Positions 1-42,509 of a stretch of DNA of 64,000 bases are shown here, one piece after another; position 1 is the first letter of the stretch, and each line of letters opens with the position of its first letter. This DNA comes from Obrimoposthia wandeli (taxonomy: Eukaryota): NCBI GenBank assembly GCA_977020255.1, contig CDROCS010000294.1, forward strand, positions 1 to 64,000, given 5' to 3'. Below the pieces are notes generated by a model that saw only the letters and a program-made list of their open reading frames with translations, had not been told where the DNA came from and ran no database searches. A program made the position numbers and the translations under genes.

Positions 1-830
1 AAAGATATGCAGCTACACACGCTTATTTTAATAATAAAATTGATTTCTATTATCATAAAGGATTGATGCAAATGGAACAGTTATATCGGATGATGATTGA
101 AAGAGATTGCCAGTTAAACAAAGAGATCGTGAGAACAAAGTTAGCATTAGCTATTACGAATCCAGACATGGCGGTAACCATTATTACCCTTGGATGAAGG
201 AGTGATTTGCTAAAACCATGGAGAAGTATTTGTATACTTACAGAATTAATAGTAGAGGTACAGTTGAGAAAAACAAATCGATGTACAGGTGAATTGGCAG
301 TAACGTATAATTTAAAAGATCTTTTGTTGAACCAATCACGAAATGTTACTTCAAAGACACCCCAACTAAAGAAATCAGCTGCTCTAATATAATGGCACCT
401 GAATATCAGATGACGAATAATCTATGGATAACGTTACCTGATCGGGAAGCCAACGAAAACCCCAGCGACTATTGATAAGAATGACGAATCTTAAGGTAAA
501 TGAAATTCCAAGCGGTGGAAAATATGGAGAACGCAAGTTGTACAATGAAAAAAGATTTAAAAGCGGCGTGGAACGAAATAATGTTTCCAGTAAGAAGAGC
601 CAGAGTACTTTGCGGAGATGGTACATCGAGCATTACCGCCAGGAGCGAGATATGCGAATTTCGATATGTTATTATCGCCAAGTCATTTCAGGAAGCAGCA
701 TGAACACTTAGAAAGATGTGGGGGAAATTCCTTGTCTTAGGACAACTATTTTCGGGTATCATAGGTATTTATGTTATAATTAAATTTGTGCAGGTAATTC
801 TTAGGTGTTGTCTACGTATAGTTTATACAG
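1..830 (+). pseudogene. C-terminal part of chuvirus-like envelope glycoprotein, frameshifted
   Basis: Manual translation across frames gives RSFVEPITKCYFKDTPTKEISCSNIMAPEYQMTNNLWITLP, KDLKAAWNEIMFPVRRARVL and KMWGKFLVLGQLFSGIIGIY. These match element B's FVEPITR...KEINCSNIMAPHY...IWITLP, EDIDKLRKEILFPQIRSRIL and KIWGKFLIFGQAFSGLVGIY. Confidence 0.88.
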
Positions 831-1259
831 GATAACCGGAATCACCTGGCAACTTATAATTGGATGTTTTTCCATTTTAGCAAAATATCTAATGCACCAT
901 CACGAGAACGAGTTGCGAGCCCTCAAAAGAAGGAACAACACCAAACGAGAACCATGATGAGAGAACCAAGAAACTATCGAGACGACAACGACGACGATAA
1001 TGATAGTCCAGAAGATATGCAAAAGATACCAGGAAAACCAAAGATTCCGTTACCAGACAAGGAAAAGTGGCGTTAAACCTATACCCAGCAGAAGGAATTG
1101 AAGGAAGAGAAGGAAAAATTCAAGAGAGGCATCTTAATGATAAGATGGCTAAAGTGAGAAACGCTACAGTGAAATTCCACAAGCAGAGGAAAAAGACAAA
1201 AGATAATTCCAGAAGAATTCTGAAGTCTAGGATATCAAACGAGAATCCCAATGCTCCTA

Positions 1260-1545
1260 CAAGTAGCAGTAACATTGAACGGAAGAGAGAATATCTTGCC
1301 GAAGTTGATACCGGATCTGCAGTATCATAGTACTGAGTAAAGAAATATCTTGTCATCAAAAGAATTAAGAGAGAAGTATGTCCTAGAAAACAGACATTTG
1401 TTAACGTGAACGGTACAGATGTAGTGTCGGAAGGAACGCTGAAATGTTCATTGAATATCGATGGAAGAGTATTACAGTTAAATGCTAGAATATTCACAGA
1501 TTGCGGTAGTCCAGTCATGCCATTGGGATGGACGTAATACGAATG
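1260..1545 (+). pseudogene. Retropepsin-like aspartic protease domain no. 1, frameshifted
   Basis: EYLAEVDTGSAVS (DTG at 1307-1315), followed in another frame by FVNVNGTDVVSEGTLKCSLNIDGRVLQLNARIFTDCGSPVMPLGW (flap and C-terminal strands). Confidence 0.75.
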
Positions 1546-1844
1546 TTTGAAGGAATAATTATACTACCAAACAACAAGAGTTATAAGAATGATGACAGTT
1601 CAGTGAGAGAGAGATAAAAATGTTGAGAGGACCTATAGTCGAAAAGGAAAAATGCACTACGTTCCGTATGGGAAGTTCGTACCCAGACAAAAACAGGAAG
1701 CGCTAGCAAAGTCGATACTTCACTACAAAATGTAAATTTCGGACCACAAGATACGACGAGGAGAAAAATAACATATGTAAATCTGTCAGAAAGGGATCCC
1801 ATGAGATTCGAGAGAGAAGAAAGAGGGCAGAAATATATTAGAAC

Positions 1845-2035
1845 AGTACTATTCAAAAGGAATGGCACGTAAATGGCAAGATCAGGTTTAGAAATGCTAA
1901 ACGCACGACAAGTAGTTATGGTCAGGAGATAGTAGTACGATGCGTATGGTGTAGAGTAAAGTTTAGAGAATGGGAACAGAATGAAAACCCAATGAGACGT
2001 CATAAAGAGATGCACCAAATTGTCCATTTCTTTTG
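1845..2035 (+). pseudogene. BIR (baculovirus IAP repeat) domain, frameshifted
   Basis: MARSGL... then VVRCVWCRVKFREWEQNENPMRRHKE/APNCPFL: exact C-x2-C-x16-H-x6-C spacing after one frameshift. Confidence 0.8.
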
Positions 2036-2224
2036 AAACTGAAAACGTCAAACGTACCAGAAATCAAACGGGAAAAGCACCCGATTTCGATTACAGTGAT
2101 GGGATTCCAAAGGAGAATCAGCTCTAATAACAGGTATTAGAGTAATAACGAATAGTCGAATTGAAGATATATTCGAAGTTATGCGAGAAGTGAACGAATG
2201 TGACGAACAGTATCAGTAATGCTT

Positions 2225-2395
2225 TCGAAGATCCAAGACTTAAAAATTGGCAAAAAGGGACTTTTTATAAAAAGGATAGTAAAGACGTAATTAAATGCCA
2301 CAAGTGTAAAAAGAACGAATTATCGACAGATACACTCTGGAGCTACCTAAGAAAATTTTGTACACATCATGAATTTTTGCGAATTTTGTACTTCT
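2225..2395 (+). pseudogene. Second, degenerate BIR-like domain
   Basis: RLKNWQKGTFYKKDSKDVIKCHKC resembles the BIR motif GFYY-x-G-x2-D-x-V-x-C-x2-C. The His/Cys half cannot be recovered cleanly. Confidence 0.45.
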
Positions 2396-2684
2396 AAAAA
2401 ACAAAATAAAGCAAAAAGAACAGAAAACCGAATGTATAATCGAATACCAAATCACACGAAAAGAGATTTTGGCTCAACAAGACACACCGGTAGTGTCATT
2501 CGTGAGAGGGTTATATATCCAAAAGAAGCAGAAAGAATCAGAGAGAATTGGTAGAATTAAAAATAAAAACTACGCTTGCGAAACGGATACGGATCGATTT
2601 TTGAATACTGCGAGATAAAGATGACAGTACAATTGAAACAAAGAAAAAGAGTACATAAATGAACTAGAATACGTACTAGAAGAT

Positions 2685-2815
2685 CCGGAATGCGCAGTTT
2701 GCATGGTTAACAAAATAGAAGTTGCCTTTCTACCATGCGGACATGTAGAACATGTCGGAGATGTGCGAATGAAATGGTATCATGTCCAATTTGTCGAAGA
2801 ATAATAGATCGACAA
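2685..2815 (+). pseudogene. IAP-type C3HC4 RING finger, one frameshift
   Basis: ECAVCMVNKIEVAFLPCGHV + RTCRRCANEMVSCPICRRII, typical of IAP C-terminal RINGs. Confidence 0.85.
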
Positions 2816-2919
2816 GTGAGAAACATTAGATTTCACTATCCAAATATAGGAAGTGGACTGACAGAGTGTAATAATTCGATAAATACAATATACCATATGG
2901 GAAACATAAATGGGGCACA

Positions 2920-5900
2920 GCGACCAGCAGCTATCATTAGAGTAAATAATTTAAGAGTAAAAGCCTTAATCGATACAGGTGCTGTAGCTTCAATAGTAAG
3001 TGAATACTGTTTGACAGAGGAACAGAAACGAACAATGGCAGAACCAGATGAATTTTGGTATCGGTCAATGGAGACCCTGTAAAAGTGACGGGAATATTAC
3101 CATGTACATTTATAATTGGCCGTACTACGATTACCTTACCAGTTAGAATCATGAAGAATGTCCTGAACCTACAATTTTAGGAATGGATGTATTATCACAA
3201 CTCAAAGGGATAAGTATTGATTTACAAGATCCAAGATTGAAGGATAGCACATCAAACAGACAAATAAACCAAATTGATGTAATTATAGAATCCCTATAAA
3301 AATCGGTATTAAAGATCACAATTTCTCATTCAAGGTCACACATTATCAGAAGATAAAGGACCAGTTGTGTTCGAACCATCACGAGATTTCATAGAGAAAT
3401 ACGAATTACCAGTTGTGAGTACAGTATGCCTGATCGAAAACCATAAAATACCAGTTAGACTGATGAATACAACCAACAATGACATTCTATTATACAGAGG
3501 AATGAGGTTGGGAAAGATAGCACAAATGGAGAATCCCACAGTGTGTGCTATGAAACTCGATAAAGACACGAATGATTACGAAGAAATAGTAATCCAATCA
3601 GAAAGACTGACAACTAGAGAAAAACAATTACTTGACCTAATACATAAATTTCCGAAAGTAATTGCAAAAAATCCATATGACATAGGAGAAACACCTGTCA
3701 TAAAACATACAATACCACTGACAGAAGACAAAGTAGTCAGAAGAAGACCATATCGAGTACCATTACAATTACAAGATGAAGTAAAAAGTCAGATCGAAGA
3801 TATGTCTAAAACAGGAGTAATTAGACCGAGTGTTCGGCAGTGTCAGCAGCTGTGGTGTGGGTAAAAAAGAAGCAGCGGAAAATGGGGTTCTGTATAGATG
3901 TCAGAGAACTGAACAAGATCACAAGAAAGATGTGTATCCACTACCTAGAATCGAAGAGATGCTCGATAAATTGGGTAATTCAGATTATTTTACAACATTA
4001 GATTTGCAGAGTGGATACTGGCAAATCGAGATAGAGAAAGAGGATAAACACAAAACAGCCTTTTCCTGCGGAGATGGATTATACGAATGCGAAAAGATGC
4101 CATTCGGACTGACAGGAGCTCCAGCAACATTTCAGCGTTGCATGAATTTTGTACTCGCATCGTGTGCAAACACGATGGTTTATATCGATGACATAATAAT
4201 ATTTTCGAAAACGTTCGAAGAACATTTAAAAATCTTGAAGTTGTATTTAAAAGACTGGAAAATGCTAAATTAAAAGTTAAACCTACAAAATGCGTATGGG
4301 CTAAAGAGCGAGTAACATTTTTAGGACATATAGTATCGAAAGGGCATTCGACCTGATCCGGCAAAAGATCGAGAAGTAAAAGCGCATTTAGCGCCAAAGA
4401 CTGTTAAGGAGATACAGAGTTTTTAGGTCTGGCGAATTATTATAGACGATTTGTTGAACATTTTTCAGATATAGCAACACCATTGAGAAAGTTGACGAGA
4501 AAAAGATGAGAAGTTCATATGGGGAGAAGAAGCCCAACAAGCGTTCGAGCATTTAAAGAAAGATTGATAAAAGCACCGATATTAGCGTTTCCAGATATAA
4601 ACCGACAATTCATACTCATGACAGATGCAAGTAACTATGCTGTAGGAGCAGTATTGGGACAAGAGGATGACGAAGGAAGAGAACACGTCATTGCGTATGC
4701 GAGTAGAGGATTAAACAGAGCCGAAAGAGGATACTCTGTTATCGAAAAGGAATGTCTAGCCATAGTGTATTCATGTAGAGCAAGTACAGACACTATTTGC
4801 TAGGACAAAAAGTATTCACTGTATACAGATCACAAACCACTACAGTTCTTATATAAACATAGAGATGAGATGAGTAGATTAAACAGATGGTTTCTAAAAT
4901 TGGCCGAATTCGATCTAGAAATCCGTTATAGAACCGGAAAGTCGAACGGCAACGCAGATTGTTTGTCGAGATTGACAAATGTAGACGAAAGAAACATAAT
5001 TCCAGAAGAAGATGAAACCAATGACCAAAAGGAGAAGCAAATCTACTGACGATTTTGCTAAAGACGAGGTAAAAATAGACAAAGAGATCATCAAAGAACA
5101 GAAAGAAGATGAAAGAACTGAGTCTAATCAAAGAATTGTTGGTGAAAGGAGATCTAAACGATGAAATGACGAAGAAATACTCGATAAAAGAAGGAATCTT
5201 GTATATTGTCAATAATGTCGGAAAGATAGTAGTAGTAATTCCGAAGTCATTGAAAACAGCAGTGATGATCCAGTATCACGACGGAACACTAGGAGGACAT
5301 CTGTCAGGGCGAAAGACAATAGCCAGAATCAAAGAAAGTACCATTGGGATGGTATGGAAGACGACATAAAACAATGAATTGTAAACAATGTAAAGTGTGT
5401 TTAACCAGAAAAGACACCGGAACTCGTACTAAAGTTCCGTTGAAACCAATACCAGTTCCCTTGGCACCAATGGAATTCACAGCGATGGATATATTGGGAC
5501 CATTGAGAGAATCAAGTAAAGGAAACAAGTATGTCATAGTATTTACGGATTACATGACGAGATGGGTAGAAGCATATCCCATGCAGAACCAGAAAGCTGA
5601 AACAATAGCGCAAATCTTGGTGGAAGAGATAATATTTCGATACAGGTGCCTAGAAAGTTGTTAACGGATCAAAGGAAAAGAACTTCACTGGAGAAGTCAT
5701 AAAAGCAGTATCGAAGATATTCGGAATTATGAAGTTACAAACTTCACCATATCACCACAGACAGATGGTCTGGTAGAAAGGTTTAATAAAACTTTATGTA
5801 TGATGGTACAATCCTATTGCTCAGACAAGCAAGAGAGGATTGGGATAAATATTTACCTTCATGTTTATATGCTTACAGGAATTCAGTTCGAGGCGACAGG

Positions 5901-6205
5901 TCACACACCATTCTATCTGATGTATCTCAGACAGAACAATATGCCGATGGATCTGGAGTGGACCGAGCCAACATCTCAGTACCTAGAAACTGAACAATAC
6001 ATTGTCGTCATGAAGGAAAGATTACAAGATGCTTGGACCAAAGCCGGATTGAAGTTGAAATTCAATCAAAGAAGGTTACAAGGAACAATACGACAAAAAG
6101 CAAAACCACATGAATTTAGAGTCGGAGATCAAGTGATGATATTTTATCAGTCATCGAACCAGGTCTATCGTTTAAACTTCATAGACCATACAAAGGACCA
6201 TACAA
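2920..6205 (+). pseudogene. pol: Ty3/gypsy pol (protease no. 2, RT, RNase H, integrase), many frameshifts
   Basis: VKALIDTGAVAS; YPLPRIEEMLDKL, TLDLQSGYWQIE, MPFGLTGAPATFQR, YIDDII; LMTDASNYAVGAVL, YSVIEKECLAIV; GGHLSGRKT...CKQCKVC; MDILGPL, FTDYMTRWVEAYP; GPY motif near 6195. Confidence 0.95.
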
Positions 6206-6206
6206 G

Positions 6207-7634
6207 GTGATCCAGACAACTTCAACAAATTTGAAAGTAATCAACGAAGAGAATCGGAACAAGGAACCGATGATTGTACATGCAAATCGATGCAAATTAG
6301 TACCAAATAAAGATAATGCGTCACGATATGAGTTAAGATCACAGAAATCGAAATCGAATACCAATACCATTAAACTTACACGAATGGTAAGTGATCGGAA
6401 CTACATAAACATGATGACGAGTGGTAGCAAGGAAAAACCAGCGAGAATTGGTATGCTCAGAATGAAGTACCAAGAGGAAAAGGAAGTAATCCGACACATC
6501 GCACCACAAGAGATATTAGAAGAAGACGAAGAGATAATAGTCGTTTTCGAAAAAACACAACCAACAGATGTAGCTAAAGAAGTCATTGTGAAAGATGCAC
6601 TGACAAACGAATTTCTGTGCGAACTTAGAGTGTCATATTACGACGGAAATACATTAGTCGCATCACTTTATCAAAATTCCAATGTGTTTACGACTGAGAA
6701 AGTGATAATCGAAATCACATTGACACCAAACATAGTTGCATGGCAGAACTATGACAGTACTGAAGCAGGACTAGCCAGTCAGGAAGAGAAGGAACCGGCC
6801 GGTGGTCACATACTGCATGGTACACCAACAGGACTCAAACAAGAATACCACGATGTAATAATGGTATTACGTAATTCACATGGGAAAAGAGATATCATGA
6901 GAGTCCATTTAATCGACGCTGACACTGAAAAGATAATTTGTCAGATGGACACTAAATACTTTGATGGAAAGACAATTGTATGTTGTATACCAGAATCTCA
7001 CCGGTTAGAGACAGATCAAACGGAAGTATCTGTAAGGTTGAGCGTAATAGAAGGATTCCATTCGCCAACCCATCCGGAAGTGACTAACAATAAAATCATC
7101 AAAGCAACGGCAGAGTTACGCATTGACAGCGGATACCGGAAGTGGGAAGCTAAAAATAAAAAGCCACAAAGAATCAATATGATCCGAGAACAAGTGACCA
7201 ACTCAATCCAGCCAAAATATCATGCTGAAATAGTATCATCCGCGCCAAGTGTAATCACATCGATAAACGACGAAATTATAATTTTACTAAAAAATCGATG
7301 GCCGTCATCAACTGAGATACGAGTAAACTTAATTAATTATGCGAAAACACCGATATCTAAGCTGAATGTTACCTATTTTGATGGATTGTCCATCATGGGT
7401 AAATTGGAAACAATTGTCATGTGCTACGGAGCACAGTTCCAAGTTGAGATACTTAAAGATAGTGTAATACCGTATCCGATTCACAAATACGAAGGGGAAA
7501 TCAATCCAATTATTCTAACACCTTCATTAATTTCAGTCAGACAGACATACCGGAATACCCTTCGAGCGAGTCTAGTGAAGACAGCGAACCGGAAAGTAAC
7601 GATACAGAATCAACAGAATCCGAAGATAACATAA
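6207..7634 (+). CDS. Integrase C-terminus fused to three ~80-aa repeats (TIG/IPT-like Ig fold, inferred)
   Basis: HANRCK...RYELRS integrase tail, then three repeats with conserved I-x4-P, [DE][EV]I[IM][VI][VLF] and Y[YF]DG at near-constant spacing (about 6486-6722, 6807-7049, 7227-7457). An open acidic frame from about 7540 links to the next ORF by one frameshift. Confidence 0.7.
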   Translation: MIQTTSTNLKVINEENRNKEPMIVHANRCKLVPNKDNASRYELRSQKSKSNTNTIKLTRMVSDRNYINMMTSGSKEKPARIGMLRMKYQEEKEVIRHIAPQEILEEDEEIIVVFEKTQPTDVAKEVIVKDALTNEFLCELRVSYYDGNTLVASLYQNSNVFTTEKVIIEITLTPNIVAWQNYDSTEAGLASQEEKEPAGGHILHGTPTGLKQEYHDVIMVLRNSHGKRDIMRVHLIDADTEKIICQMDTKYFDGKTIVCCIPESHRLETDQTEVSVRLSVIEGFHSPTHPEVTNNKIIKATAELRIDSGYRKWEAKNKKPQRINMIREQVTNSIQPKYHAEIVSSAPSVITSINDEIIILLKNRWPSSTEIRVNLINYAKTPISKLNVTYFDGLSIMGKLETIVMCYGAQFQVEILKDSVIPYPIHKYEGEINPIILTPSLISVRQTYRNTLRASLVKTANRKVTIQNQQNPKIT

Positions 7635-7654
7635 TAGAGCGATTCGGAAGAACC

Positions 7655-9637
7655 ATGGAGGTTGAATTCGCTAAAGAAAGCAGAAAAAGACAAAACATAG
7701 AATTCGTGAAACAGAATATACAAGAAAGACGAATTAAATCTGCAGAAGAGACCGAGTCGGAAGAAGACTCAACAAAGGAACAGACATCAGAGACAAAGAT
7801 GAATACCTCTCCAGCAATACGAATGCTGAGAGGAAAGAAACTGGCAAAACTAACCAACATCGACGAACAGATAGAGAAGAGATTAGAAAGATTAAAACTT
7901 GAAGAGTCAGAATTAATGCCACAAATGAGTGAGATCATTCCAGGTAAGTTGTACCTCGGAAATGTGGAGGATGCAACAGATGAAAAGAAACTGTTGGAAC
8001 AAGGGATAACATACGTGATCAACGTTACAATGAATCACAAATCACAATATCAGACGATCAGAGCTATGACATTAAGAGTAAAAGACTCAATGGACGCTAA
8101 TCTTCTCGAATGGTTTGTAGAAACAAACGAAATACTTCACAGAGAACTCCGGAACAAAGGAAAAGTGTTGGTACATTGTCAGAAAGGAATTTCTCGATCA
8201 GCAACCCTAGTATTAGCATATCTAATAAAGACTAGACGAATGCAGGTACTAGAAGCGTTAAAATACCTACAGGAGAGAAGAAGTATTGCAAACCCAAATC
8301 TTAATTTTTTGGGGCAGTTGGCAAATTACCAACTTCTGTTGCAAGAACAAAGACGGATGGACGACATTCCTGAGGACCCAAAGGAAAAGAATTTCCTTCA
8401 AGCATTATCACTGACTGGGTTATTTTTAGCCGGAGTCGACAAAATTACACAAATAATGCCAAAAGTATTTTTATGTCATCCAGGAGATATAGATACTGCT
8501 GGATTAAAGTTCCATAGTATCAACCGAGTAATCAACATTGTTGAAATCGGAAACGAGATAATTAGTCTGTGTCAAAATACTGAAAATGACACCACTCGAT
8601 ACATACATGCTTCCAATCGAGAGATAAACGATGCACAACAACATCTGACGAAATTGACTCAAACCATCCAAGCTGAAGTCACAGAAGGAAACGGCGTTCT
8701 GATATATCAGAAAAAAGGTACAATGTTAGCGCCTACCATAGGTGTATCCTTGTTGGTAGAGTACCATGGTCATACGCCAGAAGAAGCGATGGTCTACATC
8801 AAACAGAATAGACCAAATACGGAATTCAAACCGTTACTCGTTCGAGAAATAGAGAAATACACCGAAAAGAGGAAGCAACAACGAGAAACAAATGAAGCTA
8901 CAACAACAGTGCCCAGCTTTCAATACCAAAGATTGCTAGCGATAGGCTTGTTAAGTTGTTTAATGCCGATAACGGGAGCACAAGAAATAGACTCCAACCC
9001 CGGAAATAGTTCCTGGTTCAACGAAATCCAAAATTACACCATACAGTACCATACACCGGCACTGATGATGCTATTAGTATTGTTAGGACTAATTGATGTG
9101 TGGATCATCCGAAAATGTATTCGATCTATGAGAACCGACAGTAAAAGATTTCAGTTTGTAAAGATGAAAAGACCAAATGGACCAACAAACAAAGTGCTTG
9201 TGTATCTAGACGAAAGGATCGAAGACAACATAGTAAATGAAGCGATATTTTACCCACAAAACAGAATACTGAATCAATTCCGAATAGATTACGAAGCTGA
9301 CCGACAGCACACACTTGACCAAATATCAACAACATTCGCCGGATGCAAGCGGAGAAAACGAGTTGTAAAGGAAATACAAAAAGATGCTGATACAAAAGGA
9401 CCAACGTATATATTCGATGGCGATGTCATCAAAACACGTGAGTATGGAAGTAAGAGAGTGATAATTGAAACAATGGAAGGACATAAAACATGCTTGTCCG
9501 CCAAAAATGGATTCGGAAAGTTGACGATACAAGGTAAACCGGTACAGTTGATTATCGGAAGAGATGGAATCGAGGAGATGTCAAAACAACGACAGACACG
9601 ATCAGAAACAGATATCTCTCAAACGATTGATAATTAA
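7655..9637 (+). CDS. Polyprotein segment: active dual-specificity phosphatase + pseudophosphatase + signal-like and TM segments
   Basis: DSP1 about 7919-8338 with VLVHCQKGISRSATLVLAYL and NPNLNFLGQL. DSP2 about 8441-8860 keeps the fold motifs, but its P-loop is VLIYQKKGTMLA. Hydrophobic stretches at about 8930-8983 and 9056-9109. Confidence 0.9.
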   Translation: MEVEFAKESRKRQNIEFVKQNIQERRIKSAEETESEEDSTKEQTSETKMNTSPAIRMLRGKKLAKLTNIDEQIEKRLERLKLEESELMPQMSEIIPGKLYLGNVEDATDEKKLLEQGITYVINVTMNHKSQYQTIRAMTLRVKDSMDANLLEWFVETNEILHRELRNKGKVLVHCQKGISRSATLVLAYLIKTRRMQVLEALKYLQERRSIANPNLNFLGQLANYQLLLQEQRRMDDIPEDPKEKNFLQALSLTGLFLAGVDKITQIMPKVFLCHPGDIDTAGLKFHSINRVINIVEIGNEIISLCQNTENDTTRYIHASNREINDAQQHLTKLTQTIQAEVTEGNGVLIYQKKGTMLAPTIGVSLLVEYHGHTPEEAMVYIKQNRPNTEFKPLLVREIEKYTEKRKQQRETNEATTTVPSFQYQRLLAIGLLSCLMPITGAQEIDSNPGNSSWFNEIQNYTIQYHTPALMMLLVLLGLIDVWIIRKCIRSMRTDSKRFQFVKMKRPNGPTNKVLVYLDERIEDNIVNEAIFYPQNRILNQFRIDYEADRQHTLDQISTTFAGCKRRKRVVKEIQKDADTKGPTYIFDGDVIKTREYGSKRVIIETMEGHKTCLSAKNGFGKLTIQGKPVQLIIGRDGIEEMSKQRQTRSETDISQTIDN

Positions 9638-11079
9638 AACCCTTTGCAAAAGGTCAGTCAAGGCCCTGTGCACCGTTGCACAAGGATTGATCTATGGAGT
9701 AGTAATTGGATTGGTACTGCAAGCCATGCCAACCAGTAAAGCCGAATTGATGACACTATCCGAATATAATTTACATTTGAGAAATCTAGACAACACCCTA
9801 GAAATAATCAAGACATCCCACAGTAGAGCCGTGATGATCATGTGTGTAAAAGGATGTCCAGGACAGAATGTGTATAGTCCCAGCGACCGAAATGATAACA
9901 CTTAATGGACATTATGGAGTTAGCGTTGTCACATGTGAAGACTACATATTTGGACAAACTAAAATAGTGCTTCTCAGTGACACGTCCAACCAAAGTGCAC
10001 ACAAATTTAAAATATTAACCATCAAGAGTAAAGGAATACCAGCAGTACGTTATGGTATTCTAGAATTGGTTAATCCAATACTCGCACTGATCATTGGATT
10101 TATAATATTAATATTACTCATCTTGTTTTGTTGTTCAAAGATAGAGTCGAGATCAAAAAAGAAACGCCATGATCTCGCAAGACGAACAGGTCAAATGAAC
10201 TTACAAAAATTCAACACAATAATACCAAGACCACCATTCCTAGATGAACCAGCACCAGAGTACCAGCCAACGATATACGAACACATCGAGGAAAGACCGT
10301 ACTATATGAGTAATTTGACTTGTTTCATTGAAGTTCCTGAGTTTAGGAATCGAACGATCATAGGAATCATGCTGATCGTACAAATCACCACTACCAAGGC
10401 TAGTTATGAGATCATGATCAGTAAATGGAGACAAGACGTAATACGGGCAATATACATAGAAATTCCCCTACTAAAAACAAATCACGTAGTAGACATTCAT
10501 CTACAGACGTCAGCAACTGACAATATCGATCAGAAATTGTATGTCATCCGACAGGTCAGAATAAAAATCGACCAACATACACCCGTTTACAAATTAATAT
10601 TATTGCATCATGAAAGAGTGTTATACCTACGGATAACAATATCAAAGAGGAAGCGGATTATCCAAAGTATCCGAACAAAGTCATTAATATTACCTAGAGA
10701 TGAGCGCATCTGGAAAATTGTCGACAGGATTATGATCACAGGTAGACGACGTAAAGCCGTATGGAATTCCGTTAGGATATTTTTCAGATTGCTAGAAACT
10801 GACAGCGTGACAGTAATGTGTCCCAACCCAGATGGCGTAATCAGATTCGAAATCCAAAGCCAAATGTTAGTACCACATTTTAACACAGAATGTCTGTGTA
10901 ATCGAATTGCAAATAATTCTACAGAGACCGCAACCGTATTCATGATAATAATAGGTGATATATTCTACATAACACTAAGATACCAGAACCGTCGATTTCG
11001 CAGATACGGTATAAGTATCAAACCCAGGAAAATCATTCCCAGAAGACCAATCCTAATAGTCAAAAGAAGGCAAAGGTAA
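9564..11079 (+). CDS. Polyprotein segment(s) with signal-peptide-like and transmembrane segments, product unknown (two frameshifted ORFs)
   Basis: GLIYGVVIGLVLQAMPTSKA; TM PILALIIGFIILILLILFCC followed by a basic stop-transfer stretch; TIIGIMLIVQITTTKA. ORFs 9564-9905 and 9868-11079 overlap. Confidence 0.6.
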
Positions 11080-11662
11080 TCGAAAGTAAACGACATTCCA
11101 AGAAACCGACAGTGATCAAAACAAAGACAGAAGCGAAAGAAAAAGAGTCAATCCCAGAAACCAAAGTACAATTATTAAGAGGACAAGAGTGAGGGAACGA
11201 TCCCTAGATCCCAAACATCATTTCCAATCCAAAATAATAATACCTGTTCCATCAGAAACAAAACACCCAAATCCCCGAATTTTTAGAAAATCGGACATAA
11301 TACATGGAAACCGATCAAAACCCATGGAAATATCATTCGAACCGACAAACGACAAAATGAAGTATGATTATAAAACATCAGACAGCGGAATAACAGCGGT
11401 CAATGCCCTAGTGGAATGGCCGTAGTGTCAACAGCGGTGGTTCTACTTACAATCGTGTGCGTAAAAGGCAGTCAAGTATGCCCAGGAATACGACGAAAAT
11501 GCGAAGGATTGCGATGCTGTGACACACCCATCATGGAGGAAGTGGAATTGCGACCCTTACCTCCACCTCCCATCAAGATATGATGAGTCAGAGGAGGTTG
11601 TAGATAAATCAGTGTGTGAAATATGTAGAAATATCTAGAAGCGATTGTACAAATAGTAGAAG

Positions 11663-11671
11663 TATATAAAA
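11663..11671 (+). promoter_or_regulatory. TATA-like box upstream of RING ORF1
   Basis: TATATAAAA starts 44 bp upstream of the ATG at 11707 in a short AT-rich intergenic gap. Confidence 0.4.
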
Positions 11672-11706
11672 CTCATGTAGAAATTAATCATCATCATGTA
11701 TTTAGA

Positions 11707-12006
11707 ATGGCCGAAGAATGCCCAATATGTTTAGAAGATCTAACCGAACGAAGAACAAGACCCGAAACCTGCAACCATTTACACCACGAGGAATGTTTAT
11801 CGACATGGATCAGAACTTATGGACAGTTCGGACACCCAACATACCCTCGTTGCCCTATATGCAGAAGACAATTCGCAAGATTCGTCATGTTAGAACCCAA
11901 CCAAAGGGATGTATATGTACAGGTGGTATTCTGCTGGAAGAATTTCGGAGAGTGTTGGTGTTATTACTGTTTGTCAGATCGACAAAATCAGACCACTTTT
12001 GTGTAA
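11707..12006 (+). CDS. RING-H2 protein 1 (99 aa) with C-terminal Cys cluster
   Basis: CPIC-x13-CNHLHHEEC-x3-W...CPICR, then CWKNFGECWCYYC. Confidence 0.88.
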   Translation: MAEECPICLEDLTERRTRPETCNHLHHEECLSTWIRTYGQFGHPTYPRCPICRRQFARFVMLEPNQRDVYVQVVFCWKNFGECWCYYCLSDRQNQTTFV

Positions 12007-12066
12007 AGATCACACAAACACCAGTCCTCAATCGAGCCCAAATTCAACATCAACCCTCCCACAGTA

Positions 12067-12369
12067 ATGTCTGGAGAATGTTCCATCTGCTACGAGAGCA
12101 TCGTGGACTTCTACACCAAGCCCAACAACTGCGACCACCTTTTCCACGTCGAATGCCTCGAGACGTGGATCCCCATCAAACAGCAACAACCCCTCGACTT
12201 TCCAACCTGCCCGATGTGCAGAGCGACCTTCTCAGTACACTACGTGTACAACCAAGACAGCCTCCAAGCAGTGGTACCCATCGTACACTGCTGGAAAACC
12301 ATCTGCGATTGCTGGTGCTCGTTCTGCGTGGAGGAGCGAAGCACAGGCCAGCCCAATCCCCAGCAATAA
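12067..12369 (+). CDS. RING-H2 protein 2 (100 aa) with C-terminal Cys cluster
   Basis: CSIC-x13-CDHLFHVEC-x3-W...CPMCR, then CWKTICDCWCSFC. Confidence 0.9.
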   Translation: MSGECSICYESIVDFYTKPNNCDHLFHVECLETWIPIKQQQPLDFPTCPMCRATFSVHYVYNQDSLQAVVPIVHCWKTICDCWCSFCVEERSTGQPNPQQ

Positions 12370-12703
12370 TCGAAGGTAACTTTCTGACTTGAACGTGACA
12401 TCATGAACTACCCTGTGTATCGCATACCGCGATAAATTAGCTACCATAATTGTAATCATAATTATATAATCTTGTGAACTGTAAATTGACCATTACCATT
12501 TTTATGTATGATGTTTAACTGAAATTGTAATTATTATACTGAATTTCTAAAAAATACAATTTTTATGCTTAGTGTGAATGCGTAAACATGCCTAAAATCG
12601 AAACAAAACTCGGTAGGATTAGATAACTAAGAATTCATTTTGAAATAAAATTTAAATTAACGATGAGAACGGTGAACCCCAAATTAAAAGGAGTCATTTT
12701 CTC

Positions 12704-13240
12704 ATGCAGATGTTGTGCTCCGTATGCATGGAGAAGATTTGGGCGGTATCAGCATCCCCTGTCGGCTGCCGTCACAAATTTCACGAGGAGTGCCTCTATT
12801 TGTGGACCAAGGTTCGAACCTCCGGACAAATCACCTGTCCACTGTGCCGGACACCCTTCGCCAAATGGACACTCCAGAGCCGGGGAAGACACAAAGGCAC
12901 CCGATCGCCTGCCAGCTGCATTGGTGGCATCCATTGCCGATGCTACGTGTGTCTCGCACGCCGGCGCGACACACAACTGGGCGTCCGCGAGAGATGGCGG
13001 TCTAGTCGAGACTGCCACTCGTGGTTCCAGGCCAGACGGCACTGGATTGAAAGCCATAACATGAACAGGCAGCACTTCGACCTGTTCATCGACAGCCCGC
13101 ATTTGACCCGGAGCCAGCAACTCCATTTGTACAACGGGGACAGTCCGTCCTTTCCCGACCTTCCCCTGGAACAGGTTCTACGCTACCTGGCCAGTCGGAA
13201 CCAGCCAACAATTACAATTGATTTGACATACGACAATTAA
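12704..13240 (+). CDS. RING-H2 protein 3 (178 aa) with Cys cluster and C-terminal SIM-like motif
   Basis: CSVC-x13-CRHKFHEEC-x3-W...CPLCR, CIGGIHCRCYVC, ends TITIDLTYDN. Confidence 0.88.
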   Translation: MQMLCSVCMEKIWAVSASPVGCRHKFHEECLYLWTKVRTSGQITCPLCRTPFAKWTLQSRGRHKGTRSPASCIGGIHCRCYVCLARRRDTQLGVRERWRSSRDCHSWFQARRHWIESHNMNRQHFDLFIDSPHLTRSQQLHLYNGDSPSFPDLPLEQVLRYLASRNQPTITIDLTYDN

Positions 13241-14011
13241 TCCTTTCCTCCCTTCTTTCCTTCCTGACCTTGGTTATCGTGTAATTTTGTGTGTAAATTT
13301 TTAGTTGTGCATGGTTAATAGTGTATACTTTGAGACTTGCTCCAAATTATATATTATGTTTCCCACTGGAAAACCGAGATTTTGAAAAAATTGTTTTTGG
13401 GCATGTTTGTTGAGGTTGAATGATTGATTTTGTAGGGATGAACCTAAAATCAACAGCCAAAGGCTTATTAAGTAAAATCGATACGTTCCGGGGACGTAAC
13501 TTTTTTGGAACCCCCGAGGTATGTTAAGGTTGAGAATTAAGAAAATTAAATATTTTAGTTGATTAAATACTAAAATAAAAAATCCTTGAAAGCAAGGTCG
13601 AAAATTGAATTAAAATATTAATTTAAGTTTTAGAAGTAAAATTAGTGAAATTTAGGGTAAATTAGGAGGACCACGAAGGTCGTGTATTATGCGAAAATGT
13701 ATAAAAGTTTAAAGTTAATTAACCAAAAGGAACAAAATAAGAATTAATTAGAAGAAAAACGGTTAATTACAACCGTCGCTCAAGGATCCCCAAGGTAAGC
13801 ACATTTTCGTGCAATAAACTAAATTTTGTTTGCAGCTGTCAATTGATTGACATTGCAATATTCTCTCCGGGTTCGCTGAAGAAAGACTCAACGCAGCCGT
13901 CAACTGATTGACGTCCAGTGCCAATATATAAAGGCAGGTTTTCCAGCTAGAATCACAAATACGGAATCGCCAGAAGAAACAAAGACAGGAAGCAACAATC
14001 CCCTCGTCAGA

Positions 14012-14591
14012 CGAACCGTTGATTGAAGAGTCGAACCGTTGATTGAAGAGTCGAACCGTTGATTGAAGAGTCGAACCGTTGATTGAAGAGTCGAACCGTT
14101 GATTGAAGAGTCGAACCGTTGATTTAAGAGTCGAACCGTTGATTGAAGAGTCGAACCGTTGATTTAAGAGTCGAACCGTTGATTGAAGAGTCGAACCGTT
14201 GATTGAAGAGTCGAACCGTTGATTTAAGAGTCGAACCGTTGATTGAAGAGTCGAACCGTTGATTGAAGAGTCGAACCGTTGATTGAAGAGTCGAACCGTT
14301 GATTGAAGAGTCGAACCGTTGATTGAAGAGTCGAACCGTTGATTGAAGAGTCGAACCGTTGATTGAAGAGTCGAACCGTTGATTGAAGAGTCGAACCGTT
14401 GATTGAAGAGTCGAACCGTTGATTGAAGAGTCGAACCGTTGATTGAAGAGTCGAACCGTTGATTGAAGAGTCGAACCGTTGATTGAAGAGTCGAACCGTT
14501 GATTGAAGAGTCGAACCGTTGATTGAAGAGTCGAACCGTTGATTGAAGAGTCGAACCGTTGATTGAAGAGTCGAACCGTTGATTGAAGAGA
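14012..14591. repeat. 20-bp minisatellite (CGAACCGTTGATTGAAGAGT) x29 inside LTR A
   Basis: Exact 20-bp period. Three units carry a G>T change (at 14121, 14161, 14221). Confidence 0.97.
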
Positions 14592-14702
14592 CGAACAGTC
14601 GATTTCGAAGACGATTCCGCCAGGCTCGCAAACACCACATACGGACCCTACACCGGACGTCCCACGAGTTGCTGTAACTGGTAAGAACACAGACTAGGTT
14701 CA

Positions 14703-15140
14703 TTCATTGCCCCTAGTAGGCAATTAGGATATATTCATTACCCCTAGTTGGTAATTCTATATTTTCTTAATCATACACAAATTCATTGCCCCTAGCTGGT
14801 AATTAGGATCACTGTCTCTTTACCACAATCATTGCCCCTAGTTGGTAATTAGGATCGGACCTTTATTCATTGTCCCCAGCGACAATTAGGAAACCTACCA
14901 GACGTTTTTTCCCGTAAGATTCATTGTCCCTAGCTGACAATTAGGTTCATTCATTGCCCCTAGTTGGTAATTCGGATAAATATTCATTGTCCCTAGTAGA
15001 CAATTCGGTAAGACTCATTGTCCACTAGCTGACAATTCGGTTCGTTCATTGTCCGTAGTTGACAATTAGGAGTAAGTTTTTATTGTCATCTTGACAATTA
15101 GGTTTTTAGGAGATCCCTTGTCTACAGTAGACAATTTGGG
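14703..15140 (+). repeat. Array of 12 short inverted-repeat (hairpin) units with variable linkers inside LTR A
   Basis: Consensus TTCATTGYCCCTAGYWGRYAATTMGG. 6-bp stems with 5-8 nt loops; linkers about 4-29 nt. Confidence 0.9.
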
Positions 15141-18100
15141 TCAAACATACACAGAGAGAGTAAGGAACAAAGAAACATTTAGCTAGAGATAAGAAGTAGG
15201 AGCGAAGAAAATTAAGAGAGTTGCGTTATAGATTAACCAACCTGAGTAAGAAGACTAAACCTAAGAAACTTAATCACCTGAACGTAAAATCGATACGTGG
15301 TTCATCCCCACTTCTTGTAGAGACTCACGGAAGTCCTTTAGGAATTTTATCATACTTTTTAGAAATACGTACATAAACGTATTGTGGTATTAGTTACGTG
15401 AATTTTGAATAAACAATTTCCTACATTAGAACAAGTTGTTTTTACACCCTTCAGACTAAGAGACATCAAATCAAACACCTTCAGATAGTACAAGAGATTA
15501 GGCAACCATAACACTAAGTAGGCCACGACCAACTTTAAGACCTGCTTCTAATCGAACTCACGTTGGGGCCCTCCGCACACTAAGAGGCTCTATACCAAGT
15601 TTCGTATAGAAACCCCAACAATTTCGCTATAAATAGTACGAGGATTTTCTCGACATTTAAATATTTTATTAAGAATTTAAATATAAAGAATAAATTAGGT
15701 TTCATCGATTCCTTCCGAAAAAAACACCACTTTTTGTTAACAAGTGTAATAGGCAAAAATCTAAAATAAAATTTATAGATATTTTTAAAATTAACTAACC
15801 TTTTTTTTAATAAGATCTTTATTGTTCTTTTTCAAAAATATATTTTGTCAAGAGCTAAATATAAGTACTATAAATAGCTATATTTTAAAGAATGCAAATA
15901 TAAGCAGAAATATACATAATATGTATAATATAGATACAAAAATTATTTAATTTTTACAACCAAATAATTTATTTAAATAACGTAAATACCATTTAAAAAA
16001 TCTCTGTACAAAAATGAATCTAGAAAAGTTCCCTTGTCTACTGTAGTCGACTAAACTCATTTGATTTGTTTAGATTTATCACCAACCAGGTATTCATTAT
16101 GAGCCAAATTAAAGTTTACAATATCGTCGTAATTTGATTGGCTAATAGTTATTTTAAAAAATCTGGGTTTCTCTTCCCTAATGCATGACGTCATGCAATC
16201 AAGAGGCAACCTGTGAGTGTGTGTAGTAATAATCAATAATAAAGAATGCTGCCGAATCAAGTGTAGCAGACAGTGAATTTTTTTAGTCTTCTGGTGCCTG
16301 AAGGGACTCATTTGAACAAGCTCTAGCATCTTTTAAAACAAGCTAAATATTTGAAGATCTGTTGACTGCATGGGAATATAACATAGTGCAATGGACTACT
16401 CGTGTGGTTTCGCGCCTGGGTTTGGTGGTTCTTTGAGAAGGGGTGGTAATATTCGAAAATCGTTATCAGTTTCTTCAAAATACATTGGAGGAGCAGATTA
16501 TGGTAAGAATTTATTTGGGTGTTTTGAGGAAAATATTTAACTTTAAAACTATTTTGTAATTAAAAGTTTATTATAATCCCATTTTGAATCTTTGGATTTT
16601 ATGTCTCGTACATCTCGTACATCGCTACATAACATAAAAGTAGCTGGGTGTTTAATTGTTTAAAATATTTACTATTTTATTTACTTATCTATCTGTGATT
16701 CGTAAATTTTGGCAGAGCTCTTATTTCTCCATAGAAATCAATTTTCGGCTTCGAATTTTAAGTTTTATTGTTTTCAGCTTATTTGCTCTGCATCAAAACT
16801 TTAAATAAACTATTTTTATAACTTTAAATTTAGGGATTAAGTGAGAGAATGTCAACCAGAAATTCGAATACTAAAACTATGAACCATATATACATCTAAC
16901 ATTTATCATTTCAGTAATTGTCGTAATTCTGTGTAGAGCAGCCGTAGACATTATCAAATTTTTACGTTTAAATTAAATTTATTCTCATTGTGGATTTATA
17001 ACAGTATCCATCTATAACTTTTGAGCTGCGTAAAATTCCATTGCGTGTCACCAGTTTGAGACAAATTTTTTTTCTTCTGCATCATACATTTTATAGTTTT
17101 TGTGCAAAATTACTGTAATTTTCTTCTATGTGATGTTCAATTTATCAATATATTTTATTTTCTCATCGGATTTATCAACTACAGAATGTTAACCAACTAG
17201 ATACAACAGAAGTTATCAGAGTGGAAATCGCAAATCTTCTTGATAATTACCAAATATTCTCAAAGTTAATTGTCAGCACCAATGTTAAAATATTAGTGCC
17301 CTAAAACGTTTTTATTGTAAATAAGTAATTTTGAAAATTTTAAAATATCCCTTAAAATATTTTTTGGGAAACAGGAAATTTTACGTTATATTTGCCTTGG
17401 TAAAGCTTAGTAAAATTTTCAAGTAGAAAATTGTTATGAGATCAAAAACAATCATTTCAGTAAACTATAATCTGTATTTTTATTTAATAAATTACAAAAT
17501 AAGTGCTGTTGAAAATCAATATTGCATATTCTGATTTGTAGACAAGCTCCAGCACAAATTTTGCTACTTTAAAAGCGCAATAAGGAAATTTTCCATTCTT
17601 CCGCCTATTGCATCCCTCACTTTCATTGTTAAAATATGAATTGTGTGTGTGGTAACTACGGGGGATGGTGTTAGACTTCCAAACAGGTTAATGGGATCCG
17701 AGAGAGTGGGATATTTTTAATGCAATATCCTTTTATAATGTTATTTTATGGAAATGAATAGTCTATAAACAAAAAAACAGGAAATCTATTTTATATCCTC
17801 TATATCTTGACATCACAAAACTCCACTTTGATATGAAAGCTAAACTTAGAGCACCACTGAAGATCAAATCACTAAAATATATTAATAGCAATTTTTTTCA
17901 TTGTGACCCATGTGGTTGATGATTACTAGTTAAAGCTTGAATATTTGGTTGTATTGAGATTAGTAATTTGAGCGTAATTATTACGTTTATTGATTGGAAA
18001 TAAATTATATTCTTTGCTTGAATATAAATTATATACAAATATCCAGCTTCAACCAAATAATAACTGAAAAATACTCAAAGCTGGAGATAAATGTTCTTTT

Positions 18101-32232: not shown

Positions 32233-33865
32233 TGTTGGGGTTTATATTTGAAACTCTTAAATATATCCTCGGATAGAGTGCCCCAACGTGAGTTCTATAG
32301 AAATATGGCTTGGAGTTGTTTGTGGCTTATTTAGATTGTGCTTACCTGTCTCAATGTCTAATCTGAAGGTTTGTTTTTGCTTGTTGTTGTGGAGTTGTGT
32401 GAAGAGCTGTGTATACGGTACTGGAAAAATTCCCTTAGTGTGGTGTAATGTATGAAGTTGTTGGCATTTTCTTTAAGTTCAAATACTTGTTCAACACAAC
32501 GCTGTTTAATTGTAGGAAAGCTTTATTATTGAAAACACACTATTTTACGTTTTTAAAAACGACAACAACTAATCCTAACTTCTCTTCACTAAACCTCACA
32601 CAAATGGGGATGTCTTACGTATCGATTTTATAATTTCTTTAGTCGAAGCGTTTACTTCTTCTTATGATTTTATCGTATAAAATGTGGGCGATTTTAAATT
32701 TAACTTATTTTATCTTCGTCGTAAAAATATGGACGATTTTAATTCAAAGCTTTTATTTCATTTTAAGATTCTATCGTACAAAATATGGCGATTTTAGTGG
32801 AAAACTTTATACTGATATTTTATAAACGTATTTCAAGATGAATACTTTCACTTTAATAATATTCAATAAGGCAGTTCAATAGGGCAATTTCACTTTATCT
32901 ATCTTTAAATAATATAGTCAATTACTATTTAATATGGGCAATTCAATATCTTCAAATAATATAGACAATTACTATGTAATATGGCAATTCAATATCTTCA
33001 AATAATATTCTATAAATAATATAGTTTAATTTCTTTTCTCACCTTTCTCAAATCCGAGAGATAGTTGCGTCCGTCTGTGAGTCTGTAGTGTATAGTCTTA
33101 GAACAATGTAGGTAAGGGAAGTCGGCAAATTAGTTTCGTACCTTTATTTTTCATCGTCCACTGCGAGGTTGTTCAGAACAAATATGGCATTTGAATTTAC
33201 TTTTCTTCGTTTTTTCAATTTTAGTCTTCTTAATATCCTGTTAGTTTTGTCCTCCGAAATTGATTTGAATTCGATTCTTTATTTTCTGTCGCGCTTGGAT
33301 TTTATCGACGAGTTCTGTATATCTGTTTCTGGATATCAACTGTGACATTTTTATAAATATCCTTTTTCGACTTTGATATAAATTTTTTTCGCCTGGCAAA
33401 CGCTGTCTTCCTTTTTTATACTCCTGAATCTGGGAAACAATAATAATTTTGCACTTAGTTTATGTGTTCTTACCTACGTGTCTGGAGATCAGCTGGATAT
33501 TCACAGCGTCTTCTTGCTGCTTCGGATACAGTGGCGCTTAATGGGCTTCCTTGACTGGCGCTAATGTGTCGAGATTTATATTTGGCCTGGCGTAATTGTA
33601 TCGCTAATGGATTCGATTTCTCGTAATAAGTTTCTTTAATTCGATTTTGCCTTCTATATTTTTTGCACCTTTTGGGCCCTAAACTCTCCTTATATATAGC
33701 ACACTAAACACTTGACCTCTTCAAGGTCCTAAAATACTTTTAATAAAATTATATTAGTTTTAATTTTTAATTTATTTTTTAACCTTGCGTACTTTGCTTC
33801 AAGGATTCATTTCACTATATAAAAATAATTATTTTTTGAAAATTAATAAAATCCTAATTCTAACA
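32233..33865 (-). mobile_element. Solo LTR related to LTR A, TSD ATAG
   Basis: TG...CA termini; ATAG at 32229-32232 and 33866-33869; ends homologous to LTR A (e.g. CCCCAACGTGAGTTC, ATCCTTGAAGCAA). Confidence 0.85.
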
Positions 33866-33954
33866 ATAGAAATGATATGTGATGGAGTGGTCAACAATAA
33901 AGATGAGAAATAATAAAAAGGATATTTGTTAATAAATAGAATAATAAGTAATAA

Positions 33955-34858
33955 TGTTATATTTTGTTAATTTCCAATATATTCAGTTTTTCCAAAAATA
34001 ATCTGCAACTAATTTCTTGTATAATTGAATAGTTTTCTATAAATCTGAACGAATCTGAACAATTTGTTTTTGAAAATATATTTGACGGTATATAAATGGA
34101 TAAAAATTTTCAGTGATAATAATCAAAATGGGATATATTTTTAAGAAAAATGAAATTGAATTATGGCAATACAAATCTGTCAGAGTGATAATTTTTAATA
34201 GCCAATAGAGATAAAATTTTTCCGTGTGTCCATTATAATGACGACGATTGCTATAAATAGCAATCGTCCAAATGTCAACTGGGCAAGGCTGATTCGCATA
34301 ATGTCAGAGCAGAAAGAAACGAAATCCATGCGAGATCGACGATTGCTATAAATAGCAATCGTCTAAACACAGTTTTCGGTATTTTTTTAATCTTGGGGTT
34401 TCAATCAATGGGTCCATGCAATCTTGTCATTAAGGGAATTTAGTTGCCATCAGGAGGGACTGCGAGTCGGCAGAGTGCGACCGATGGAGCACTGGAGGGA
34501 GCCAAGCGCACACAAACTCCCGGCACGCACGCACACACACATAGGATGATGCCGGCCGACCGGGATGACGTACACAGAACTGCGGACTGCGGAACCGGCC
34601 GAGAAAGGGCAAACCGCCGCCGCATCTGCTGCAAAGCTGGGCGAAAACCCCTGGCGGCCAAAACCACCCTTTATTTTCATCACTAAAAAAAAACAGCCGC
34701 CCTCCCGATGAGCCTGGCAAGGCGAAACGGGCTAACAACCCGTCGGAGGCTGAGATTTGATAAACCTCCCTAATTGTGGGTACTTTAGATAATTTTAAAG
34801 AATGTCAATTTAAATTGACTGTAATTTATTTTAATTAATTTTAATTAAAGACCCAACA
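33955..34858 (-). repeat. 3' LTR of element B
   Basis: Direct repeat of 47348-48251. Confidence 0.97.
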
Positions 34859-35129
34859 ATCCTATGGGGGTATACAAAGTCAGACCTCTGACGTTTTATA
34901 TTTAACAAAGATGTTTGTTTAATTGTTAAAATAATCATTGTTAAACATAGTTAAAAAAAAATTGTCATCATTTAAAATATGGATTCATTCATGCTATAAA
35001 ATTATTTTTATGCTTTGGATAAAAATCAGCCATAAACACGATTACTCTAGTAGTGTTTACTTTTTTTATTTTCTGTTCACTCTGATTTTTCTCGAAACAT
35101 TTTCTAAAATAATAAATTTTCCTACCACT

Positions 35130-36305: not shown

Positions 36306-36683
36306 ATATAAAAATTGTCAACTGTCTATCAAATGAAATGTTCCTGTTAGTTATTTTGTCTCTTTTTGTTAATCAAAAATCTGTAAATCGTTTTTGTCTT
36401 TATGTAACAAGTTTAACAAACAAGGTATATAAATAAGATATGATTTTTTCATTTTTCAATATATATTCTTATTACTGGTGTTACCAATATCAATATATAC
36501 ATATCTATACTGGTATATTCATTTTTTACCTATTCTTAATTTTATTATTACTATTTCAACTAAAGTTAATGAATATTAATACCCATTCATAAACGCATTT
36601 CCTCTCCAAAAACATGCCAAAAGCCCAAACTCATTCTCAATTTTCTTTTATTTTATATTTTATTTTACTCACTGGGGATTTTA

Positions 36684-36992: not shown

Positions 36993-37063
36993 TTTCTAAA
37001 TTGTTAAAAAGTTTTTAAGTCTTATTTTAAAAAAAAAAAATAAATAAATAAATCTTTTGATTT

Positions 37064-42500: not shown

Positions 42501-42509
42501 TGTATTTTT

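Follow-up and report, generated by a model that had tools for sequence, protein, structure and literature searches.

A twelve-hairpin array in the long terminal repeat of a Burro-like Gypsy element as a probable sense-strand RNA structure

Introduction

Burro/GYPSM1 elements are giant Gypsy elements of planarians (PMC6431247). The available part of that description gives them a Gag with a CCHC knuckle, a mononegavirus-type fusion protein between gag and pol, BIR and RING domains, a PR-RT-RH-IN order, a length over 20 kb and very many copies, all shared by the element reported here, which differs by having phosphatase and extra RING ORFs after the integrase. Tandem repeats are marked in a figure legend of the same source, and its available part describes no LTR RNA structure, repeat slot or leader.

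Repeats and structured cis elements have precedents in the leaders of retroelements. The HTLV RxRE and HERV-K RcRE are elements of intron-retaining RNA that lie in the LTR. The Drosophila gypsy insulator has about twelve Su(Hw) sites in the 5' UTR and acts as DNA; the array described below shares with it about twelve degenerate units, variable spacers and a place in a Gypsy leader, but shows strand-specific pairing. Intron-retaining retroviral RNA needs cis elements for export (PMC4338338; PMC3856414) and, as far as the available parts of these sources go, the MPMV CTE, RSV direct repeats and HIV RRE resemble our array in being structured sense-RNA elements, likely protein-bound, in an intron-keeping RNA, which in our case is predicted. 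The array differs from the CTE and RRE types in being twelve separate small hairpins instead of one long or branched fold, in having neither an Rfam match nor an element protein that tracks with it, and in being replaceable by unstructured repeats. In the foamy virus LTR the major splice donor is upstream of the poly(A) signal and U1 suppresses 5' polyadenylation (PMC3694450, available part). A donor, here predicted, is likewise upstream of AATAAA inside our LTR, but a 430-nt array stands between the two, R is predicted at about 1.7 kb, and U5 carries a predicted acceptor and mini-exon. The pseudotriloop hairpins of HBV epsilon, IRE, TAR and BMV are protein sites that folding programs miss, according to the available part of PMC3884659; they and our loops have in common a fixed C and G at a distance of four that enclose a free triloop, whereas our loop has seven bases, two of them extra on the 3' side where the hexaloop has one, and is arrayed twelve times.

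How invertebrate Gypsy genomic RNA passes splicing, early polyadenylation and nuclear retention is little studied. Here we describe a 64,000 nt stretch of Obrimoposthia wandeli DNA (the window) in which a first-pass annotation, made from the letters alone, had proposed a sense-strand RNA stem-loop array within an LTR. Neither Rfam nor the literature searched, which held few subscription papers and did not extend to the original Burro papers and their supplements, where LTR annotations could bear on novelty, describes the array, the slot that it occupies or the leader. Within the family, a single small RNA motif with a clear pairing signature can be followed through thousands of natural variants and set against siblings in which other repeats take its place. 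In a regeneration model the array may lead to a host RNA-binding protein together with the hairpin motif that it binds, and may give a compact tool for RNA tagging or expression control.

Results and discussion

The element and its LTRs

Comparison of 30 close copies placed the boundaries of LTR A at 13522..15620 on the plus strand (TGTT...AACA, 2,099 bp) and identified it as the 3' LTR of a Burro-like Gypsy element of about 23 kb, in a family with an LTR-to-LTR spacing of about 21.4 kb. Since 4-bp target duplications and LTR pairs 99.9-100% identical (1,020 nt compared) were found in all five other elements checked, this family is young, and it is abundant. The plus-strand sequence at 1..13521 is the 3' part of the internal region, frameshifted in the window copy, with ORFs for BIR/RING, protease, RT, RNase H, integrase, phosphatase and RING (Pfam, 15 window ORFs). 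It is 96.8-97.3% identical over most of its length to another copy, C889, in which nine ORFs gave Gag with CCHC followed by PR-RT-RH-IN in Gypsy order, together with PF24664, PF00653 and PF13920, which correspond to a fusion glycoprotein between gag and pol, BIR and RING. The ORFs of the family are thus Gag-CCHC, a mononegavirus-type fusion protein, BIR, RING, PR-RT-RH-IN, phosphatase and further RINGs. Burro elements also have a single polyprotein of about 4,900 aa and BCL2, MATH and ankyrin motifs; the coding region of the C889 copy is split over several frames, and its ORFs gave no Pfam match to these motifs at 1e-3. The last RING ORF (window 12690-13240) is 70-99% identical among elements and often partial, whereas neighbouring ORFs are 86-100% identical. 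A further, smaller Gypsy element lies in the window on the minus strand at 33953-47645, flanked by 300-bp direct repeats (99%); it comprises gag, pol, a fusion glycoprotein and an ORF for an RNase T-type exonuclease. The primer site is one that we take to match elongator tRNA-Met; no tRNA gene was found in the 64-kb window.

Genome-wide there are 24,051 occurrences of a 15-mer located near the LTR end, and the first 100 of them in contig order provided a sample of 99 distinct LTRs in 68 clusters. At least four hairpins of the loop type of LTR A were present in 33 of these 99 LTRs, which makes the hairpin type the largest class. Together with the genome-wide matches, this puts hairpin-type LTRs at about 6,000-8,000.

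The twelve-hairpin array

The array proposed in the first-pass annotation was found in LTR A at 14706..15135 on the plus strand, where sequence and pair-state counts define twelve hairpins with a 6-bp stem and mostly a C-N-N-H-G-Y-W loop. The stems are those that had been listed: ATTGCC/GGCAAT once (14706), ATTACC/GGTAAT once (14737), ATTGCC/GGTAAT three times (starting at 14785, 14831 and 14953) and ATTGTC/GACAAT six times (14869, 14923, 14986, 15017, 15048 and 15082). The further statement that a G-U wobble is the only mismatch held for 11 of the 12 hairpins and failed for the twelfth (15117-15135; CTTGTC/GACAAT), which has a C·U mismatch at its outer pair and could form two extra pairs inside the loop. 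Loops are of 7 nt in nine units and of 6, 8 and 5 nt in the other three. The spacers between stems are 11-36 nt, or 4-29 nt once the seven shared flanking bases are removed, in agreement with the linkers of about 4 to 29 nt first described. The commonest unit pattern has 38,628 matches genome-wide against 9 for the reversed control. The array had been reported as absent from the two related solo LTRs of the window, B (32233-33865, minus strand) and C (50978-about 52335, minus strand), and comparison with LTR A bore this out: they share only the LTR ends with A and have other repeats at the place of the array.

Evidence for selection on sense-strand pairing

When a stem base undergoes a transition, one strand is left with G•U and its complement with A·C, which allows the two mirror states to be compared. 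Genome-wide counts, which are of copies and not of events, were obtained at stem position 5 as 38,628 U-A, with a pattern that left the loop free, and as 7,514 C-G, 1,957 U•G and 161 C·A, with patterns that fixed the loop C and G; 6,169 C·A would be expected if the arms were independent. At stem position 4, again with the loop C and G fixed, there were 4,433 A-U, 4,543 G•U and 71 A·C, the last against 3,799 expected of independent arms. One C·A state has been amplified, a terminal-unit lineage making up about 80 of the first 100 C·A matches listed, and the fully paired alternative stems may stem from few origins and have been spread by exchange among units.

These counts bear directly on palindromic, Sox-like DNA sites, which had been offered as the alternative to RNA; the paired ATTGT words would then form an internal enhancer or insulator. 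The commonest unit does consist of two inverted ATTGT words at fixed spacing within divergent linkers, and the LTRs of the family vary in their promoter-proximal part. The half-sites, however, neither vary independently nor keep ATTGT: each half-site variant is common by itself, yet independent halves would give 38 and 53 times as many A·C combinations as there are, and the mirror G•U is common, an asymmetry for which duplex DNA offers no simple reason, and the ATTGCC, ATTACC and L113 subfamily stems lose the Sox word yet keep pairing. We consider DNA sites a poor fit and very improbable.

Events were counted by label parsimony on a tree of non-stem columns, with changes in clades of at least three rows taken as inherited. 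From 124 distinct twelve-unit arrays that were aligned, the 51 obtained via wobble or mismatch patterns were set aside, which left 73 LTRs. On this tree, a midpoint-rooted FastTree of recombining elements whose units exchange sequence, and with many of the 73 LTRs being best matches or coming from patterns that demand a paired unit 1 or 2, inherited stem changes were paired rather than unpaired by 20 to 1, whereas tip changes were 24 to 24 (p=2.6e-4). The ratio of G•U to A·C was 7:0 among inherited changes and 15:12 at the tips (p=0.036). With all 124 rows included, the paired to unpaired ratio was 24:3 for inherited and 56:66 for tip changes, and that of G•U to A·C was 9:1 and 36:41, respectively. 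Shared variants per column amounted to 0.12 in stems and 0.62 in linkers. A mutational strand bias was rejected as the cause of the G•U excess; the bias in the linkers (0.43 per column for C>T plus A>G versus 0.36 for G>A plus T>C) is too small.

Two cases of covariation do not derive from exchange among units. In unit 12 the loop-closing pair switches between C-G (60) and U-A (58) among the 124 rows, and it does so in a loop that is unique to this unit. In the L113 subfamily a similar loop sits on different stems, CAAAGUA on CUAU/AUAG and UUGU/ACAA and CAAAGUG on UUAU/AUAA. An alignment of 33 units, in which 99.1% of cells pair and 11 cells carry double changes, a number reached by 0 of 500 shuffles, exceeded all 500 shuffles and all slid controls in pairing, but it is only illustrative because the units were picked by hand for their pairing.

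The pair states and the event counts together show covariation among subfamilies as the first-pass annotation had anticipated, and we regard it as highly probable that the array is a selected sense-strand RNA structure. Because the covariation is within units and not between them, a local fold is favoured.

It is improbable, in our estimate, that the array is instead a by-product, in which slippage in a tolerant slot generates the repeats, unit exchange homogenises their cores, and A-to-I editing or folding-linked mutation gives the G•U excess. Tandem arrays of one sort or another, built from unrelated units and varying in copy number, occupy this place in almost all subfamilies; A-to-G changes would create U•G and remove A·C, and the hairpins are weak, all of which such an origin would accommodate. 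The commonest wobble, however, is a G•U beside G-C and arises by a C/T change, which is not a product of A-to-I editing. Across subfamilies the loops diverge, whereas C1, G5 and the stems are maintained; for the covariation of unit 12 there is no donor unit that could have been copied; and private changes are unbiased where inherited ones are biased. Even a by-product of this kind would still need sense RNA to pair.

Folding strength of the hairpins

The 461-nt array region folded with a z-score of -4.1 on the sense and -4.35 on the antisense strand, values that repeats alone can cause, and whole-region folding z-scores thus do not distinguish the strands. Single hairpins are weak (-3.6 to -8.7 kcal/mol), with z above -2 in six of the seven tested. 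In computed ensembles of the window array the probability exceeded 0.5 for 3 of the 12 hairpins globally and for 2 of the 12 locally, most hairpins losing to other pairings; in 11 other LTRs the mean hairpin probability ranged from 0.01 to 0.79. Since the hairpins are weak and rarely dominant, a bound protein or co-transcriptional folding must be assumed. No Rfam match was obtained up to E 5 in 13400-15700.

The loops

Seven-base loops were collected from 1,217 units, a set that was entered via a pattern favouring the loop C and G; position 1 was C in 1,212 and position 5 was G in 1,216. A loop-free genome search also gave C1 and G5 in all 100 matches listed. As C1 and G5 are nearly invariant, a pair across the loop remains a candidate only. 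Twenty loop types recur, and they differ at positions 2-4.

The consensus of the iron-responsive element is a CAGWGH hexaloop on a 5-bp upper stem with a bulged C. This candidate was rejected, as only 1 of the 20 loop types begins with CAGAG, that type has seven bases and there was no Rfam match. The Smaug/Vts1 recognition element, which has a CNGG loop, was also rejected; position 4 was G in 0 of the 1,217 units. A pseudoknot between the loop and the 3' flank is not a general feature, full pairing being possible in 1 of 52 distinct loop/flank combinations, and CCUA/UAGG pairing does compete in the window subfamily. Kissing loops were likewise dismissed as a general feature, because only CUAG loops are self-complementary.

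The array lies in a predicted ATG-free leader

A U3 palindrome, CCTTG-AAAG-CAAGG (13584..13597, plus strand), served as a landmark and was found in 36 of the 68 LTR clusters, many sampled stretches ending before it. A TATA box follows within 200 nt of the landmark in 30 of these 36 clusters, mostly at a distance of 103-122 nt; in LTR A it is at 13700..13707 (plus strand), where it marks the predicted main promoter with a start site near 13730. Downstream on the same strand are a predicted 41-nt GT-AG intron (13795..13835), a second TATA-like box (13925..13932) and a 20-nt tandem repeat at 14009..14611, with 28 copies here and 8-34 in other copies of the element. Short introns like this one occur in 10 of the 36 clusters with a strict pattern, and by eye in solo LTRs B and C. 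The 20-nt repeat can pair via G•U on the sense strand only; 60 nt of it fold at -12.4 sense against -4.1 antisense, with a z-score of only -1.5. Between the short intron and the second TATA-like box (13837-13915) are two GTCAA-N4-TTGAC palindromes containing TGATTGAC. A 41-nt repeat at 54761-55015, flanked by two 83-nt direct repeats (54518, 55149), has a 17-nt word in common with the 20-nt repeat (88%).

A donor-like site, CTG|GTAAGA, is located at 14678..14686 on the plus strand, 25 nt upstream of the first stem. Such a site was present within 60 nt upstream in 24 of the 51 arrays whose start was in view, compared with 7.4% of random points. A conserved box at 15287..15309 (plus strand) closes the variable part of the LTR in most of the 99 sampled LTRs. 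It is followed at 15408..15443 (plus strand) by a poly(A) site predicted by sequence comparison, with AATAAA at 15408, CA at 15424 and a GU-rich tract, and AATAAA was within 12 nt of TTTCCTACA in 84 of the 99 LTRs. The end of the array is about 270 nt upstream of the predicted poly(A) signal. U5 contains, at 15478..15503 (plus strand), a predicted acceptor CCTTCAG ending at 15484, a 17-nt mini-exon and a GC donor; a second predicted acceptor ends at 15454. The U5 acceptor was found in 88 of the 99 LTRs, and 16-17 nt further on AG|GCAA in 78 and AG|GTAA in 2 of the 99. The donor of this 16-17-nt mini-exon alternates between GC and GT among subfamilies and is GT in solo LTRs B and C. One very short LTR, L202 (C17:275060-277660), joins U3 to U5 at the acceptor position and is without the TATA box, array and poly(A) signal.

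The last sense ATG of LTR A is at 13697, with none from 13698 to the end of the LTR. In the C889 copy no sense ATG occurs for 3.27 kb from the TATA box to the first ATG of gag (L031:1503-4776). Over the 36 clusters ATG had an observed/expected ratio of 0.05-0.06 downstream of the TATA box; the corresponding ratios were 0.51 for U3, 0.92 for host flanks and 0.66-1.32 for the antisense strand. ATG was the most depleted of the 64 triplets after TATA (0.053; next triplet 0.61). The depletion spans the array and the predicted intron. Because sense ATG is so depleted, we infer that the leader is transcribed and is both kept and scanned in the Gag-producing RNA. The array itself has the TATA box on one side and the poly(A) signal on the other, and its transcription and retention, in an RNA predicted to be scanned to Gag, are very likely. 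A location in untranscribed U3 had been named as an outcome that would speak against the structure; the array is instead downstream of both TATA boxes and in the ATG-free stretch. Four sequencing runs on L031:2320-9990 looked DNA-like with even depth, and there was no GT..AG joint among the 15 joints listed. More generally, ATG depletion provides a cheap way of mapping U3 versus R in long LTRs for which RNA data are lacking.

A slot with exchangeable repeats

Most subfamilies have a tandem array at this place in the LTR, with unrelated units. Among 59 slot arrays, 8 were of the hairpin type. The other 51 are U/A/G-rich, enriched in UUUUG and UUGA, and no more structured than shuffles (2 of the 51 reached p<=0.1), from which it follows that structure is not needed in the slot. 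Hairpins were accordingly rejected as a general slot property, the mean z over 59 units being +0.41 sense and +0.18 antisense.

The type of array does not follow the proteins of the element. Hairpin-type elements do not form one clade on the gag tree (p-AU 3e-5, 18 rows), where the types are interleaved, and the U5 tree likewise interleaves hairpin and non-hairpin types. One non-hairpin element was 94-98% identical to the window across the accessory genes, in a comparison of 12 stretches, three of which (L379, L382 and L383) contained no corresponding element; in the separate comparison of gag, L372 yielded no match. Trans-activator binding had been suggested at first, but a site for an activator encoded by the element is hard to reconcile with gag and accessory genes that do not track with the array. 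Packaging had been suggested as well, but a role as the main packaging signal is not supported, since the slot holds unstructured repeats in relatives whose gag is 95-97% identical; in addition, the array sits in both LTRs.

A weaker form of this proposal, that the array is an auxiliary site for the element's own Gag/nucleocapsid in genome capture, dimerisation or strand transfer, using the copy at each end, appears to us unlikely. It would suit the CCHC knuckle of Gag and the G shown by every loop, as well as the rank of the hairpin type as the largest class, and in Idefix binding of Gag to the long 5' UTR has been reported (PMC5443660, available part). Yet the gag of non-hairpin elements (95.0-96.7% identical to the C889 copy) is as close as that of hairpin types (94.0-97.3%), a copy in R would sit on spliced RNAs too, and most loop types are not self-complementary. 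Furthermore, a better packaging candidate is at hand. After the primer site (L031:3740-4360) we observed a second hairpin array, TCGRG-N10/11-CTCGA, in 3-19 copies, present at the 5' end only and in 17 of the 17 leaders counted, with hairpin LTRs or without, and also behind B-family LTRs. Its variable pair is only A-U (145) or G•U (104), as tallied locus by locus over 68 partly overlapping loci. As a candidate packaging signal this post-primer array is the best that we found and a better fit than the LTR array.

Possible function of the array

The foamy virus donor layout and the cis elements of retroviral export lead us to read the slot as a gathering place for host proteins. We would put at about even the chances that the array is a repeated platform for a putative host protein that sets the fate of the intron-retaining RNA. 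Transcription starting near 13730 would place the array in R and hence at both ends of the full-length RNA. In its 5' copy the array would share an intron with the LTR poly(A) signal, and genomic RNA would have to keep this intron, escape early polyadenylation, exit the nucleus and be scanned over 3 kb to the gag start. A protein bound to many weak hairpins could license retention, export and stability, the weakness of the hairpins would let ribosomes through, and the unstructured U/G-rich arrays of relatives may do the same job via single-strand binders.

The working copy could alternatively be the 3' one, the array then acting in a 3' UTR through a host protein that controls how stable all element mRNAs are, where they go or how they are translated, while the 5' copy need only stay ATG-free and weak. 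Being close upstream of the predicted poly(A) signal, the array would be in every RNA that ends at the 3' LTR, and all of the evidence for pairing is compatible with either copy; in planarians, Burro transcripts show tissue enrichment, according to the available part of PMC8532177. This account is, in our opinion, quite unlikely, as the arrays start near the donor-like site (24/51 within 60 nt versus 7%), a link that would matter mainly at the 5' end.

The platform for a host protein can be taken a step further, as a tentative possibility. The AUG-free 3-kb leader might hold an exchangeable RNA cassette behind the donor, so that siblings with near-identical proteins, by swapping arrays, would each attract other RNA-binding proteins of the host and prosper in other cells. 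The cassette with the greatest success would then be an MS2-like set of about 12 hairpins, with the C-N3-G-UU loop as a new protein recognition motif.

Other repeats of the family

Just after the primer site, at L031:3380-3720, are tandem repeats rich in TTTCAG that resemble a row of splice acceptors. A third class of hairpin, AGAG-N5-9-CTCT, was observed 520 to 270 nt before the U5 anchor in 42 of the 68 clusters, in one to five copies; it was not found in the LTR cluster of the window. In the slot itself, the array of L194 has only the left arm and loop of the hairpin unit, and that of L164 has a 6-bp stem with a GTT loop, a similar word being present in L107. The L194, L164 and L107 arrays are possible steps to or from the hairpin type.
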